A stretch of 37,116 nucleotides of DNA from Promethearchaeota archaeon (lineage in GTDB: Archaea > Asgardarchaeota > Lokiarchaeia > Sigyniarchaeales > SOKP01). Positions 786-9,406 of the stretch are shown one piece after another; the first letter of the stretch is position 1; each line of letters opens with the position of its first letter. The DNA lies in contig JAUVXW010000039.1 in NCBI GenBank assembly GCA_030603385.1, forward strand, positions 1 to 37,116, in the 5' to 3' direction. The notes beneath the pieces were generated by a model. The model was not told where the DNA came from. It did no database searches and saw only the letters and a program-made list of their open reading frames with translations. Both the position numbers and the translations under genes were made by a program.

Positions 786-938
786 TCGGTTATTTCACGA
801 ATCTAGACTTTAACATTTTTAAACATTGATTGTAGAGGAAATATCCTTAGGAATATATCTTTACTCTTGAAAATTTACAGTTTTATTTGGTTAAATTAAG
901 CTCAAATATGAAGATTAGGACCTATAACCGTTTCGCGA
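786..938 (+). repeat. A-spacer-B unit 1 (putative recombination site)
   Basis: TCGGTTATTTCACGA at 786-800, 124-bp spacer, TAACCGTTTCGCGA at 925-938. Confidence 0.85.
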
Positions 939-1127
939 ACTAATATAATATCATAGTATTTATCTAAATGTCACGTGAATTATAGGATCTATATTCAAAA
1001 AATGAAAGGAATTGCAGTTTAATTCTTGGTCATTATATGTATCAAATTAATTTATGTGTATTACTTTTAATTAATTAGAATTATATAGGAATTAAACAAA
1101 TTTATTCAAATTTATAATATAGTTATT

Positions 1128-1586
1128 ATGAGATATAAATTAAAATTATATCTGGACACATCAGTTATCTCAGCACTTTTTGATGAAAGAAATCCTGAAC
1201 GGAAATCTCTTACTGAATCATTTTTTGATGATATAGAAACATTTGAAATTTATATCTCAAATATTACTACATTGGAAATTGAAAAAACACCTGATAAAAA
1301 TCTTAAAAAATTAATGAAAGAAAGCATAACAAAATTTACAGTTCTTTCTGTTTCGGATGATGTTGAAGAATTAGCAAGAGAAATCATTCAAAAAGGAGCA
1401 ATTAATGCATCATATTCTGAAGATTCTTATCATATTGCTATAGCTATAATTAATGAAATGGATTTCCTTTTAAGTTGGAATTTTAGGCATATTGTTAGAA
1501 AAAAAACAAAGGATATTGTTAGAATGATCAGCAGTTTAAAAAATTTAAGACAAATAGAAATATTAACTCCTGCTGAATTATTATAA
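1128..1586 (+). CDS. PIN-domain (VapC-like) ribonuclease toxin
   Basis: LYLDTSV N-terminus, ED-x-x-HIA and LLSWNF-x-H motifs. Confidence 0.85.
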   Translation: MRYKLKLYLDTSVISALFDERNPERKSLTESFFDDIETFEIYISNITTLEIEKTPDKNLKKLMKESITKFTVLSVSDDVEELAREIIQKGAINASYSEDSYHIAIAIINEMDFLLSWNFRHIVRKKTKDIVRMISSLKNLRQIEILTPAELL

Positions 1587-1601
1587 TGAGGTTAAGATAT
1601 A

Positions 1602-1784
1602 ATGCTAGAAAAAGAAGAACTAGAGAAAATTAAAAAAGAAATTGAACGTGAATTTCCAAATGATTTTGCTTTGCAACAAATTCATATCGCAAGAAAGATC
1701 ATTGCTAAAGAAGCAGAAATGAAGGGTCTAAGTTATCTTGATTACATTAAATTGAGTATAAAAGATATGGAAGCAGTTCAATAA
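1602..1784 (+). CDS. small helical protein downstream of PIN gene, probable antitoxin
   Basis: 60 aa, GAGGT RBS; paralogues at 4510 (also directly after a PIN tail) and 3298. Confidence 0.6.
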   Translation: MLEKEELEKIKKEIEREFPNDFALQQIHIARKIIAKEAEMKGLSYLDYIKLSIKDMEAVQ

Positions 1785-1828
1785 AATAATTTATGTATAG
1801 TATTACGATAACCTATATTTAGTGAACT

Positions 1829-2056
1829 TTATTGGCATTGTGCTAATCTCGGTATTAATTCTTCGATATTCATCTGAACGAGATCATTAAGATTTAACTT
1901 TCTCCCTGTATAATTTAAAATCTCTACACCTACAATATTATCATTCTTGTCATAATCGATTATAATTCCTTCTGCTATTTCATCTGAATTTGAGATTTTT
2001 TCACTTGAAAATCGAATGTAGAGAGCATTTGCCATCTTATCAAAAGAGAAGTTCAT
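1829..2056 (-). CDS. DUF2283 family protein (putative antitoxin), copy 1
   Basis: FDKMANALYIRF...IIIDYD...IVGVEIL pattern. Confidence 0.8.
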   Translation of the reverse strand: MNFSFDKMANALYIRFSSEKISNSDEIAEGIIIDYDKNDNIVGVEILNYTGRKLNLNDLVQMNIEELIPRLAQCQ

Positions 2057-2135
2057 AGTTACTATAAAGGAGTATTTAATTAAATATTTATTCTATAATA
2101 ATAAGATTAAATTGAGGTTAAATTTATTTTCATTC

Positions 2136-2150
2136 TCGGTTATTTCACGA
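2136..2150 (+). repeat. A box (unpaired)
   Basis: TCGGTTATTTCACGA; similarity with the 4422-5058 duplicate stops at its last base. Confidence 0.85.
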
Positions 2151-2376
2151 TTGTATTGTAGAATTAGTTTTAAATTATTATATCTTAAATTTTAATAATA
2201 ACTCATGATACTTGTTGACTCTTGAATTAGCTGTTGTTTTCCGGAGGTTGTTTAATAACTCAATTCCTTAATATCCTTATTAAATATTATAGATATATTA
2301 TTATTTTTTGAGGATTTTTAATTACACAGTGAAATTTTAAACAGGAATAGATTATTTAAATAAAAAAAGAGGTCAT

Positions 2377-2561
2377 TCGCTTATTTCACGAATCTTATTT
2401 AATAAATTCATTCTTGGGTATTATAACCTTAATTTTGCGAATATTAATTATTTTTTTATAAATTTTAATTACCCAAAATCTCACTTCTTAAGTTGTTAAA
2501 TAGAGATTTCGGTCTAATTAAAGTTTCAGCTTTCAACTTAAATTCTATAACTGTTTCTAGA
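2377..2561 (+). repeat. A-spacer-B unit 2 (degenerate, 156-bp spacer)
   Basis: TCGCTTATTTCACGA at 2377-2391; TAACTGTTTCTAGA at 2548-2561. Confidence 0.65.
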
Positions 2562-2816
2562 AGATTTATATATATATTTTTGCATAATACATTGAGTTTT
2601 CGTTGTATTATCTGAAAATAATCAGACTCTTTATCAATTTAAATCATAGAATCTTGTATATTATTGGTAAATATTATTAATATAATATTGGCATTTTTTC
2701 AGTTTGTAATAACAAAATATAATTCTCAGAATTTCTTGAAGTAATATAGGAAATAAAATAATTTTCTCAACAAATTTTTTATTTTATATTTCAATTGGAA
2801 AAATCTGATATGAATA

Positions 2817-3023
2817 ATGAATGAAATAATATTTCTTGTCGAAGAATCTTTAGAAGGAGGCTATGAAGCAAGAGCTTTAGAAACCTCTATCCATACGGAA
2901 GCCGATAATCTAACTGAGTTAAAGGACTCAATTAGAGATGCTATAAGATGTCATTTTAATGAGAAAGAAAGACCTCGAATCATACGATTACATTTTGTAA
3001 AAGAAGAGGTTATAAATTTATGA
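2817..3023 (+). CDS. HicB-like antitoxin (short form)
   Basis: EIIFLVEESLEGGYEARAL...IHTEAD...IRDAIRCHF; ATGA overlap with hicA. Confidence 0.75.
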   Translation: MNEIIFLVEESLEGGYEARALETSIHTEADNLTELKDSIRDAIRCHFNEKERPRIIRLHFVKEEVINL

Positions 3024-7431: not shown

Positions 7432-7783
7432 TTTCAGATTTTTATTAGACGAGAACGTGTCTAATAATTTAAAAAAGAATTTGATTTTAAATGGATATGA
7501 TGTTATTACTATACAAGATTTAAATAAAAGAGGCGCAAAAAATAGCGAATTAATGGAACTAGCAAGGATTGAGAAACGAATCCTAATTACTTATGATAAA
7601 GATTTTGCTTTTTTTAAACATAAAATCGATAATTACTTGATTATTATTGATGTTCATCCATTAATTGATGAAAATGTCCTACCTGTTTTTCAAAATTTTC
7701 TTAAATCACTTAACCTCAACGACTTAAAAGATAATTTCATCACTTTAAAAAAAGATGAGATTATTTTTAAAAAGAAGAAGTAA
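7385..7783 (+). CDS. DUF5615 PIN-like toxin (true start probably a little downstream)
   Basis: [21 protein letters not shown]. Confidence 0.85.
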
Positions 7784-7921
7784 TGTTATATTCTCATAAT
7801 AGTTTAAAAAAATATTTCTCTAAGTTAAGTGCTCCATGTAATTAATTAATAATGAAGATAATATCACTTTAGACGAATTGAAGTAAATATAAAAAATATT
7901 TTTTATCTGCTATCTTAATAT

Positions 7922-8075
7922 TCGGTTCTTTCACGAATCCCCACAAAAACTAATCTAACAATTATTTTATCCTGAATCTTAATGGTCTAAGAGTCAATTT
8001 ACTAAAAACTCAGCTCTTATTTTTCAATAAATAGACACTTTGAGTTTACCTTTTAGTTCTGTAACCGTTTCACGA
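7922..8075 (+). repeat. A-spacer-B unit 5
   Basis: TCGGTTCTTTCACGA at 7922-7936, 125-bp spacer, TAACCGTTTCACGA at 8062-8075. Confidence 0.85.
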
Positions 8076-8199
8076 ACTTTTTGTAACTATTGAAATCAAG
8101 TTTTAAGCATTTATAAATCCCTAATTTTTGATAATTTGATATTTTAAACAGATTTCCAATATGTATTTAAATAGATTTTACTATATAATATCATAGAAA

Positions 8200-8442
8200 A
8201 TGTCAGACATAATCGAAAGTAATCCGGAAATTCTAGGAGGAAAGCCTATCATTAAGGGAACCAGAATTCCCGTTGCTTTAATCTATGAACTAATTGGATT
8301 GAATTATTCAATAAGCGAAATTCTTAAAGAATATCCACATTTGGATCGTAATATTATTCTAACTCTTCTTAAGATTGGGAAGGATGCAAATGAAAACCTT
8401 ATGAATGTGGATATTGATGAGATTATAAGTAAAGAGGTTTAA
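8200..8442 (+). CDS. DUF433 antitoxin
   Basis: NPEILGGKPIIKGTRIPV...EILKEYPHL. Confidence 0.9.
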   Translation: MSDIIESNPEILGGKPIIKGTRIPVALIYELIGLNYSISEILKEYPHLDRNIILTLLKIGKDANENLMNVDIDEIISKEV

Positions 8443-8445
8443 TTT

Positions 8446-8517
8446 TTGAATTTTCTTCTCGATGAGAATGTACCTATCTCGATTAAAGATGTAATTCATG
8501 ATTTAATTTATTATTGA
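8446..8517 (+). pseudogene. truncated DUF5615 PIN-like toxin
   Basis: TTG start, NFLLDENVPISIKDVIHDL, stop a few codons later. Confidence 0.75.
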
Positions 8518-8629
8518 AAATAAATTATAGATTATTAAAGGTGCTTATCATAGTTTTAAAGAAGTTGTTCTTAATTATAGATCAGAATTAAATTAATTTA
8601 GATGCGTTTCTTATATTTAATTAATAATT

Positions 8630-8863
8630 ATGACTCAAGTGAAATTGGATAAAGCTTTAGCAGAGGATTTAATTACATCTAAATTAAGAATTTTAAAACA
8701 ATATATTGATGAGATACTAACTCGCTATAATGAATCTTCCTCTAAGGAATTCTTAGAGAAAACGCGTAATGGGACTTATAAAAATGCCGAAGATGATGCA
8801 GTAGAATTGCGCCAATTACTTTCAGAATATACTAAATTACAAGAGATATTAAATAATTTATAA
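8630..8863 (+). CDS. small helical protein, probable antitoxin of the DUF6516 gene
   Basis: 77 aa, Y-x-x-SS-x-EFLEK...G...EDD pattern; directly upstream of the DUF6516-like gene. Confidence 0.55.
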   Translation: MTQVKLDKALAEDLITSKLRILKQYIDEILTRYNESSSKEFLEKTRNGTYKNAEDDAVELRQLLSEYTKLQEILNNL

Positions 8864-8883
8864 AAATTTCCGTTGATATATAT

Positions 8884-9245
8884 ATGGATTCTAGAAGGAA
8901 TCTTGAGTTAGCTCGAGAGTCATTATAAATGATTATAATGAATATATAAGAGGTATTATCCTCGATAAAGACCGTCCGGTCTTAAAAATTGTATTTCATA
9001 GAGAAGTCTACCTTTATTTACGTTATAACGATTATGGAGAATATTCTTATAGCACTATCTTTTCTCCTAATCCTGATGATCAAATACGATTTGATAATTA
9101 TGATGATATATGGGATGTAAAAACACGTCCTCATCATTTTCACATTCGAGGAATGAAAAAAGTTATAGAGAGTCCTATGAAAGGAGAACCTGAGCACGAT
9201 ATTCCTATCCTTCTAAAATTTGTGTTAGAAAATATTAAGAAATAG
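8884..9245 (+). pseudogene. DUF6516/TumE-like toxin, frameshifted near 8914-8919
   Basis: MDSRRNLELAR, then in another frame VIINDYNEY...GEYSY...IRFDNYDDIWDVKTRPHHFH...ENIKK*; R-x-DN and PHH-x-H motifs; no start codon ahead of these motifs in the second frame. Confidence 0.75.
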
Positions 9246-9263
9246 TATTGTTTGATTTAATGT

Positions 9264-9406
9264 TCGGTTATTTCACGAAACCGTAATCCTAAGTCAATTG
9301 TTTTCTGCTTTTGCTTAAAAATTTAGCAAGATCTTAAATAATTCATAAATCTAATTTTTGAGACTCTAAAGGAGAGAATCCGTTTTTAATAAGACATAAT
9401 TTGATA
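9264..9406 (+). repeat. A box plus full spacer S; B box lost after TA
   Basis: TCGGTTATTTCACGA at 9264-9278; the spacer aligns to 5059-5185. Confidence 0.85.

Follow-up and report, generated by a model that had tools for sequence, protein, structure and literature searches.

Helically phased, fixed-length spacers between putative recombination half-sites in a gene-module array of a Promethearchaeota chromosome

In the first 37,116 nucleotides of contig JAUVXW010000039.1 of Promethearchaeota archaeon (assembly GCA_030603385.1), referred to here as the window, short spacers lie between two conserved boxes, A and B, and the resulting A-spacer-B units set apart the modules of an accessory gene array that spans bases 787–9419. 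The array belongs to a Promethearchaeota (Loki-type Asgard) chromosome and is one of gene modules subject to site-specific recombination; the spacers are its short non-coding modules. Comparison of their sequences across genomes and metagenomes indicates that selection keeps their length and turn-by-turn bending pattern, and neither their sequence nor a hairpin. We consider it somewhat probable (roughly 0.55) that the spacer acts as an adaptor module of double-stranded DNA, bent or looped, by which two half-sites are kept in a fixed geometry, resembling by analogy the 'empty' modules of Acinetobacter dif-module arrays, with a length ruler added.

The spacers of the window measure 124, 123, 125, 125 and 126 bp between the 14-mers of the boxes, with one outlier of 156 bp in the unit at 2378 (170 bp from box to box, about 16 helical turns), as the original prediction had stated. 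We searched for the pattern A-N-B, with an allowed distance of 128–158 bp, in the genomes of the order, in one genome per species of a reference set and in public metagenome contigs, and every fetched locus was then scanned for both boxes. Measured from box start to box start, 66 of the 70 consecutive A-to-B steps were 134–139 bp long and the other four were 893–4290 bp; all 12 units found only as neighbours, outside selection by the search pattern, fell at 137–139 bp. The 64 distinct units, from Promethearchaeota genomes and sediment metagenomes, have a mean box-to-box distance of 137.9 bp (standard deviation 1.18, range 134–139). Because the B-to-A steps vary from 31 to 6205 bp, the length constraint is specific to the A-to-B segments. 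At one locus (L044:15687–15731, minus strand) an A box follows a B box after 31 bp, forming an empty module of the gene class, which likewise restricts the length ruler to the A-to-B segments. The narrow spacer length therefore persists in a larger sample, and the broad distribution that had been named as the outcome contradicting it was not seen.

DNA with a persistent bend to one side is classically recognised by an alternation of G/C with A/T at the helical repeat, and the spacers carry such an alternation. When G/C profiles were aligned at the A box and weighted by family, the strongest period within 5–20 bp was 10.6 bp, with a power of 0.31–0.32 against a mean of 0.0175 for a null in which each family was rotated, a level reached in none of 500 rotations; bootstrapping over families placed the period at 10.45–10.70 bp. 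The phase agreed across all 13 families (Rayleigh R = 0.85), and the periodicity was unchanged without the three largest families and persisted in the central ±40 bp and in either half alone. The p-values of the Rayleigh test are approximate. The same procedure gave R = 0.75 on 30 non-redundant spacers, and no periodicity was found in the 118 bp upstream of A (81 distinct sequences, R = 0.10) or downstream of B (84 distinct sequences, R = 0.04). The G/C peak lies within about 0.5 bp of the core-to-core midpoint, where the mirror correlation is highest, and AA and TT run in antiphase to it. The boxes are thus 13.0 helical turns apart (137.9/10.6), and the phased alternation over about 105 bp, taken with the whole number of turns, would set both of them on one side of a symmetric bend. 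One of the earlier suggestions had been a synapse needing about 12 helical turns; it finds support in kind, given the narrow length and the phase-locked 10.6-bp pattern, whereas the count proved to be 13.0.

This regularity is not accompanied by sequence conservation. The spacers fall into at least 13 families, and identity between family representatives (0.547 ± 0.034) is at the level of shuffled partners (0.542 ± 0.032), which bears out the description of the spacers as unrelated-looking sequence types; the independence of the families is approximate. Within families, spacers that are 75–95% identical already differ by 1–4 bp in length.

The A box (CGGTTATTTCACGAA) consists of a 6-bp core, CGGTTA, followed by the 9-bp arm TTTCACGAA, and the B box (ATAACCGTTTCACGAA) of the core TAACCG followed by the same arm; the two 6-mers are mutually reverse complementary, and the arm is direct in both. 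On the plus strand of the window, A boxes start at 787, 2137, 2378, 3445, 5045, 7923 and 9265, and B boxes at 924, 2547 (weak), 3581, 5183, 6136, 6921 and 8061, with a degenerate copy at 9404; a motif search of the window reproduced the box positions and strand given in the original prediction. The sequence TTTCACGA occurs 11 times in the window against 1.0 expected. By their sequences, A and B represent the two halves of a 24-bp palindromic site, TTCGTGAAA-TAACCG-TTTCACGAA, in which perfect 9-bp inverted arms flank an asymmetric 6-bp core, a build that identifies it as a putative core site of the tyrosine-recombinase type; dif-like core sites of these enzymes likewise consist of arms and a 6-bp spacer (PMC2958812). 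The full site is present in 9 of the fetched loci, and from each of them arrays diverge in both directions on opposite strands; in 5 of the 9 it plays the role of A, with a B box 137–139 bp away. The ordinary junctions of the arrays keep the core and a single good arm, always on one side, and read weak arm, core, good arm, with the orientation of the core alternating along the array. Accordingly, steps along the arrays comprise 70 A-to-B and 45 B-to-A steps versus 7 A-to-A and 7 B-to-B steps. Apart from the boxes, only two motifs are common to all spacer families: A(T/A)CC after the A arm, and TTWAAW near B, at −24 to −19 from the end of the B box (T at 0.94 and 0.91 in its first two positions), which coincides with the expected position of the degenerate second arm of the B site.

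Boxes and arms also occur outside complete units. Orphan boxes number about 25 for A and about 25 for B, some of them part of full palindromic sites. In L044, L049 and other loci, several B boxes for which no A box lies 13 turns upstream share a preceding tail of about 25 bp (...GATATGAATATTTAAAGAATAT), apparently a module end of a second type. The arm palindrome TTCGTGAAA-N6-TTTCACGAA with other 6-bp centres is found at about 8 intergenic sites of this genome (C4:232407, C11:7526, C15:59003, C18:56490, C25:28363, C30:85759, C31:11097 and C41:50589), several of them just 3' of genes. Of 134 genomes of the family, 84 have exact arm palindromes (1–5 copies each), whereas a control pattern gave none; the centres CTCAAC, GGATGG, CACCTC, TCATCG and CAAGTC recur across species, and module arrays accompany the TAACCG centre only. 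The palindromes with other centres could be other landing sites, operators or terminator hairpins. On contig C25 (about 28273–28960), two TTTCACGA arms on opposite strands enclose an open reading frame (ORF) of 167 aa, and the 6-mers adjacent to them, GGTCTG and AGTCTG, are nearly identical; the bracket, which contains another arm palindrome, looks like a full site split by an insertion. A full palindromic site and two canonical units are also present on JANBVM010000001.1, a 75-kb contig of a metagenome-assembled genome (MAG) labelled Patescibacteria, which is probably a mis-binned Asgard contig.

Related spacers were found in unrelated surroundings. Spacer identity reaches 75% or more in 63 pairs of units (93–99% in several), of which 61 have both 80-bp flanks unrelated; the remaining 2 share the upstream flank, and the downstream flank is shared in none. 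Since both flanks are unrelated, the spacer with its two half-sites is a separately exchangeable module and not an appendage of the upstream gene. In the window, the two copies of a duplicated block, 1512–2111 and 4419–5019, end in A boxes (2137 and 5045) that are followed by different DNA, and a spacer of family f5 occurs at 5045 and 9265, with B-proximal remnants at 6094 and 6862, each beside different genes. Rearranged joints were sought in Logan contigs from four DNA runs; because these contigs are short, with many joints short-sided or within the internal duplication, only joints ending exactly at boxes were counted. One contig of metagenome run X1 joins 9280 to 3461 inside an A box, so that the module to the left of A(9265) is followed, unlike in the window, by the type-3 spacer. 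Other contigs depart from A(787) and A(2137) into sequence that is not the same as in the window, and in run X1 the sequence after A(2137) resembles the start of another spacer family. These comparisons indicate that both boxes are crossover points and that exchange of the spacer does not depend on the gene modules that flank it. The canonical A...B frame is retained in 81 of 100 spacer matches, the other 19 being truncated or partial. Inversion of the spacer, for which a full site and an arm-less site would be expected, was considered and rejected, as no such state was found.

How might these spacers operate? We propose that spacer DNA is bent one way, either as a closed loop or wrapped on a protein, and that the bend would bring the oppositely oriented A and B boxes together on the same helix face as one composite double-stranded site. 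Because the cores of neighbouring sites are opposite, the spacer would be an adaptor that must alternate with gene modules. With neighbouring sites inverted, a gene module could not excise alone; a spacer and a gene module would leave as a pair, by A × A or B × B recombination, and the excised pair might re-enter at any A, B or full site, with the recombinase acting in trans. Such pairwise exit and re-entry would give rise to the two-directional arrays and to the random re-association of spacers and genes. More tentatively, the spacer may be an element of geometry only, an intrinsically bent loop of 13 turns and free sequence that folds two half-sites into one working site; it would then be, to the same tentative degree, the architectural part of an undescribed archaeal module-exchange system that has no local integrase. 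The portions of the literature returned by our search, on canonical archaeal integrons (PMC9668308), aloposons (PMC8813620) and elements of Atabeyarchaeia (PMC11529989), were not seen to contain a description of this site or of such spacers.

Several points weigh against the adaptor model. First, the looping of A onto B is deduced purely from sequence statistics. Second, most units came from a pattern scan needing near-perfect boxes and many from a few sediment metagenome projects, and the sample is neither unbiased nor fully independent. Third, the orphan boxes and the four gene-sized A-to-B segments make the spacer a common part of the arrays and not an obligatory one. Fourth, the arm accompanies other cores at ordinary intergenic sites, so the protein that reads it may have other roles. 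Fifth, there were no inverted spacers between boxes among the 100 spacer matches, and neither circles nor arm-less 'tail-core-tail' sites were found. Sixth, the families might share a very remote ancestry, their anchored identity being 0.366 against 0.318 in the rotated null. Seventh, there is no link between the sites and an enzyme: none of the array loci was found to carry a tyrosine recombinase, and among 89 cargo ORFs the best 25 of 64 Pfam families were toxin–antitoxin, defence and assorted accessory families, with no recombinase.

The search for the enzyme covered several routes. The best match to the integron integrase model TIGR02249 scored 48.9 bits against a cut-off of 265 (the array begins near the end of the contig, so that a gene upstream of it may have escaped the search); matches to Pfam PF00589 in five genomes all lay on contigs other than the array contigs; and tblastn with the five tyrosine recombinases of this genome returned nothing on the 50-odd array loci. 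A gene for a XerA-like tyrosine recombinase (307–315 aa) is conserved in all five genomes checked, and in this genome (G000:C26, about 136.4–137.3 kb) it is the sole candidate enzyme in view.

Among the alternatives, the one that best survives is a positioned archaeal chromatin particle, in which a spacer of 120–125 bp would position a histone multimer or another wrapping protein and so leave the A and B boxes exposed at entry and exit. The geometry would be that of the adaptor model, with another partner and another purpose, access control or insulation in place of synapsis. Four histone dimers cover about 120 bp, and the pattern of G/C against AA/TT is periodic and dyad-symmetric with G/C at the dyad, as such a particle would have it. 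Archaeal histones protect DNA in steps of about 30 bp, and the absolute length is fixed here, with no classes of 12 or 14 turns within the allowed range. However, DNA wrapped on histones has a period of about 10.0–10.2 bp, whereas the fitted 10.45–10.70 bp is that of relaxed B-DNA, and at 10.0 bp the power is six times lower than at 10.5 bp; moreover, gene-class modules as short as 31 bp leave no such particle between their boxes. We regard this explanation as unlikely.

Could the spacers instead be transcribed? The TTTAAA about 5–10 bp upstream of the B core might be an archaeal TATA box, from which transcription would fire outwards across B into the next module or yield a short transcript, and the presence of TTWAAW in all spacer families fits this. 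However, genes that come first after B face in either direction about equally often (19 plus versus 23 minus), the motif sits where the degenerate second arm of B belongs, and a promoter would leave both the 13-turn ruler and the periodicity of the whole spacer unexplained. A scan of window positions 1–12000 against Rfam, with E up to 1, gave only a chance microRNA match outside the units. The public runs listed for positions 700–9500 of the window included no RNA run. With no Rfam match, no conserved fold and neighbouring genes pointing either way, the small non-coding RNA raised as a possibility by the original prediction gains no support, and we consider promoters and small RNAs alike distinctly improbable.

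The units had also been described as hairpin-rich, and a folded single-stranded DNA or RNA site read by its structure, as attC is, had been put forward. All the inverted repeats that were quoted are present in the sequence. However, abundance of hairpins is not a general property: against 200 dinucleotide shuffles, the unit at 5045–5189, folded as single-stranded DNA, reached z = −2.8 on the top strand and −3.5 on the bottom strand, and the other four units of the window ranged from −1.1 to +0.35 on either strand. For 32 units from all 13 families, the mean z was −0.36 (top) and −0.56 (bottom), with the built-in closing stem included, and f5 was the single family that folds better than shuffles; within it, the unit at 9265, 88% identical to that at 5045, is without the latter's hairpins. 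For the two largest families (11 and 14 sequences), RNAalifold gave 0 compensatory pairs and essentially only the closing CGGTTAT/ATAACCG stem. The 7-bp complementarity that had been said to be able to close the unit is real, but one-sided mutations were never compensated in the two family alignments. Folding no better than shuffled controls was the outcome named beforehand as contrary to a folded site, and it is what we observed.

The comparison with integrons leads in the same direction. An attC site recombines as a folded single strand with AAC...GTT polarity (RYYYAAC ... GTTRRRY) and extrahelical bases, the crossover takes place at one end only, the site remains attached to the cassette upstream of it, and the cassettes are co-oriented. 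The layout here is that of a cassette array of toxin–antitoxin genes, 7-bp inverted repeats close each unit, and the length of about 125 bp recalls the chromosomal attC repeats of Vibrio; as in attC, two inversely oriented simple sites surround a variable centre between small accessory or toxin–antitoxin genes. Reports exist of integrons in Asgard MAGs and of attC clusters without an integrase in Archaea, so that a missing local integrase is also a shared trait (PMC9668308). In contrast to attC, the units read CGGTTAT ... ATAACCG on either strand, with GTT first and AAC last, hence GTTAT...ATAAC and not AAC...GTT; both ends of a unit are junctions, the genes are not co-oriented, folding z values are near zero with no compensatory changes, and the best IntI score is far below its cut-off (48.9 versus 265 bits). 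The array therefore departs from integrons in every feature tested (polarity, hairpin, integrase, linkage and co-orientation), and we give very little credence to attC or any other hairpin site recombined as folded DNA. Equally hard to credit is that the spacers have no function and are drifting descendants of one ancestral segment of about 124 bp, or a miniature transposon, whose length is simply inherited: the anchored identity between families is slightly above its rotated null and the spacers act as self-contained mobile pieces, yet unrelated families stay at 134–139 bp with a sharp upper edge at 139 when length already drifts within families, a phase-locked 10.6-bp pattern would not outlast the randomisation of sequence without selection, and target-site duplications are absent while a transposon would not account for the orphan boxes and the full palindromic sites. 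A miniature inverted-repeat transposon in particular was rejected, as the DNA outside the unit shows no duplication and the position of the arm is asymmetric, TTTCACGAA lying inside the left repeat and outside the right repeat.

The double-stranded adaptor that we favour has its closest counterpart in the dif (pdif) modules of Acinetobacter, which occur on plasmids and chromosomes and are moved by XerC/XerD. Both systems have two arms around a 6-bp core (here in the full site of the 9 loci), and in both, neighbouring sites are opposite, two classes of module alternate and modules move in pairs (PMC13141974). The C and D modules of Acinetobacter follow a pairing rule, and modules free of ORFs occur among them (PMC13141974). 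Further common traits are a cargo rich in toxin–antitoxin genes and reshuffling between replicons by crossover within the site (PMC13141974, PMC6449649). Unlike dif, the arms of the array site are identical inverted repeats, which implies one recombinase and not a XerC/XerD pair, and the array junctions keep one good arm on a constant side. One class of array module is nearly always free of ORFs, 13 turns long and helically phased, of which we have seen no report for dif modules; the host here is archaeal and the arrays are chromosomal, and the likeness to Xer sites is one of site build, by analogy.

Other recombination systems share single traits with the array. The sfx sites of the R64 shufflon, recombined by Rci, have a core with one conserved and one non-conserved arm, and neighbouring sites are inverted; the array resembles them in its asymmetric site with one conserved arm and in its inverted neighbours. 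Shufflon segments are found in both orientations, encode alternative protein ends and adjoin a dedicated rci gene, whereas neither inverted spacer copies nor a local recombinase was found in the array; and the shufflon inverts the whole site, whereas the array inverts only the core and leaves the conserved arm on the same side. In fixed spacing and helical phasing, the array can be likened to sites with architectural DNA, such as Xer cer/psi, the res site of Tn3/gamma-delta and the attP intasome of lambda, in which DNA is wrapped or looped for the synapse. The accessory DNA of cer/psi, res and attP has conserved protein-binding sequences, whereas the array spacer is free in sequence and keeps length and bend phase. 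Integrative elements that exploit Xer recombination (IMEX) at the dif site of Vibrio cholerae (CTX, TLC), whether phages or islands, have one attachment site apiece. Repeated integration of that kind at one full site would regenerate it and leave hybrid, half-good sites, which fits arrays that leave from a full site; the array differs in that each junction has two half-sites 13 turns apart, both of them points of exchange. The aloposons of Heimdallarchaeum, which have giant genes and integrate at tRNA sites, were set aside as unrelated (PMC8813620).

The host is a MAG of 3.9 Mb with 31% G+C, and the window is the first 37 kb of its contig C43. The array starts only 787 bases from the first base of the contig and may continue past the contig end; in this genome it is confined to this one contig, and the same sites are carried by genomes of Promethearchaeota archaeon of the same genus, including JAHLWP010000019.1. 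No tRNA genes were found in the window. The units and modules of the array are as follows.

787–939, plus strand: unit 1, with A box 787–801, a 124-bp spacer that forms its own family and B box 924–939, which has one mismatch (TTTCGCGAA).
940–2136, no overall strand: gene module with a PIN toxin (1128–1586, plus), a 60-aa ORF (1602–1784, plus) and DUF2283 (1829–2056, minus).
2137–2151, plus strand: orphan A box; 13 turns downstream of it there is no B box.
2378–2562, plus strand: outlier unit, with A box 2378–2392 (CGCTTA), a 156-bp spacer and weak B box 2547–2562 (3 mismatches).
2563–3444, plus strand: gene module with a 68-aa ORF (2817–3023) and a HicA toxin (3047–3262).
3445–3596, plus strand: unit 3, with A box 3445–3459, a 123-bp spacer of family f3 and B box 3581–3596.
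3597–5044, no overall strand: gene module, apparently fused, with a nucleotidyltransferase/HEPN pair (3635–4346, minus) and a truncated block of PIN tail, small ORF and DUF2283 (4419–5019).
5045–5198, plus strand: unit 4, with A box 5045–5059, a 125-bp spacer of family f5 and B box 5183–5198 (2 mismatches).
5199–6093, minus strand: gene module with a HepT-like RNase (5306–5671) and a nucleotidyltransferase (5658–5954).
6094–6151, plus strand: partial unit, with the B-proximal 42 bp or so of an f5-type spacer and B box 6136–6151, and no A box.
6152–6861, plus strand: gene module with a 203-aa ORF (6222–6833) that has no Pfam match.
6862–6936, plus strand: partial unit, with the B-proximal 58 bp or so of an f5-type spacer and B box 6921–6936, and no A box.
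6937–7922, plus strand: gene module with DUF433 (7204–7431) and a DUF5615/PIN-like gene (7385–7783).
7923–8076, plus strand: unit 5, with A box 7923–7937 (CGGTTC), a 125-bp spacer of family f1 and B box 8061–8076.
8077–9264, plus strand: gene module with DUF433 (8200–8442), a 77-aa ORF (8630–8863) and more coding-looking sequence.
9265–9419, plus strand: terminal unit, with A box 9265–9279, a 126-bp f5-type spacer and degenerate B box 9404–9419.

The cargo of the array thus comprises PIN, two DUF2283 genes, HicA with a partner ORF, two pairs of nucleotidyltransferase/HEPN type, two DUF433 genes (one followed by the DUF5615/PIN-like gene) and the 203-aa ORF. The 68-aa ORF at 2817–3023 has no Pfam match and occupies the position expected for a HicB antitoxin. 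The block at 4419–5019 is a second, 80–94% identical copy of 1512–2111, and no site separates this truncated copy from the nucleotidyltransferase/HEPN pair, an apparent fusion of modules. Family f1 has 11 members across other genomes and metagenomes, and the spacer of the unit at 9265 is 88% identical to 5065–5185. At 8900–9244 we noted a coding-looking frame of about 100 codons, counted by eye, that ends at 9244, is absent from the listed ORFs and has no ATG, GTG or TTG start near its beginning. The end of the array at 9419 abuts an apparent chromosomal membrane-protein gene (9489–11762, minus strand), whose 757-aa product has a signal peptide, many N-X-S/T sequons and a transmembrane segment, and no Pfam match; it has three paralogues in this genome, two on contig C44 (44–47% identity) and one on C48 (36%). 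This ORF was considered as the enzyme of the array system and rejected, because it looks like a chromosomal membrane protein.

Eukaryotes have no closer known relatives than the Asgard archaea, and little is known of the ways in which these archaea acquire and exchange accessory genes. Among the genes found in the arrays, and reshuffled between species, are those of toxin–antitoxin and defence type (TIR, Mrr, McrB-like AAA and Schlafen-like). The selection that the spacers appear to be under, which keeps DNA length and bend phase and leaves the sequence free, is of a rare type, and changes of a half or a whole turn provide a cheap experimental handle on it; binding to TTTCACGAA and closure of the 138-bp loop offer a defined assay for the missing enzyme. 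Length and phasing together also form a specific signature for spotting such arrays in metagenomes. If the spacer does prove to be an element of geometry only, Asgard archaea would hold a third solution to cassette shuffling, beside folded attC hairpins and plain dif sites.

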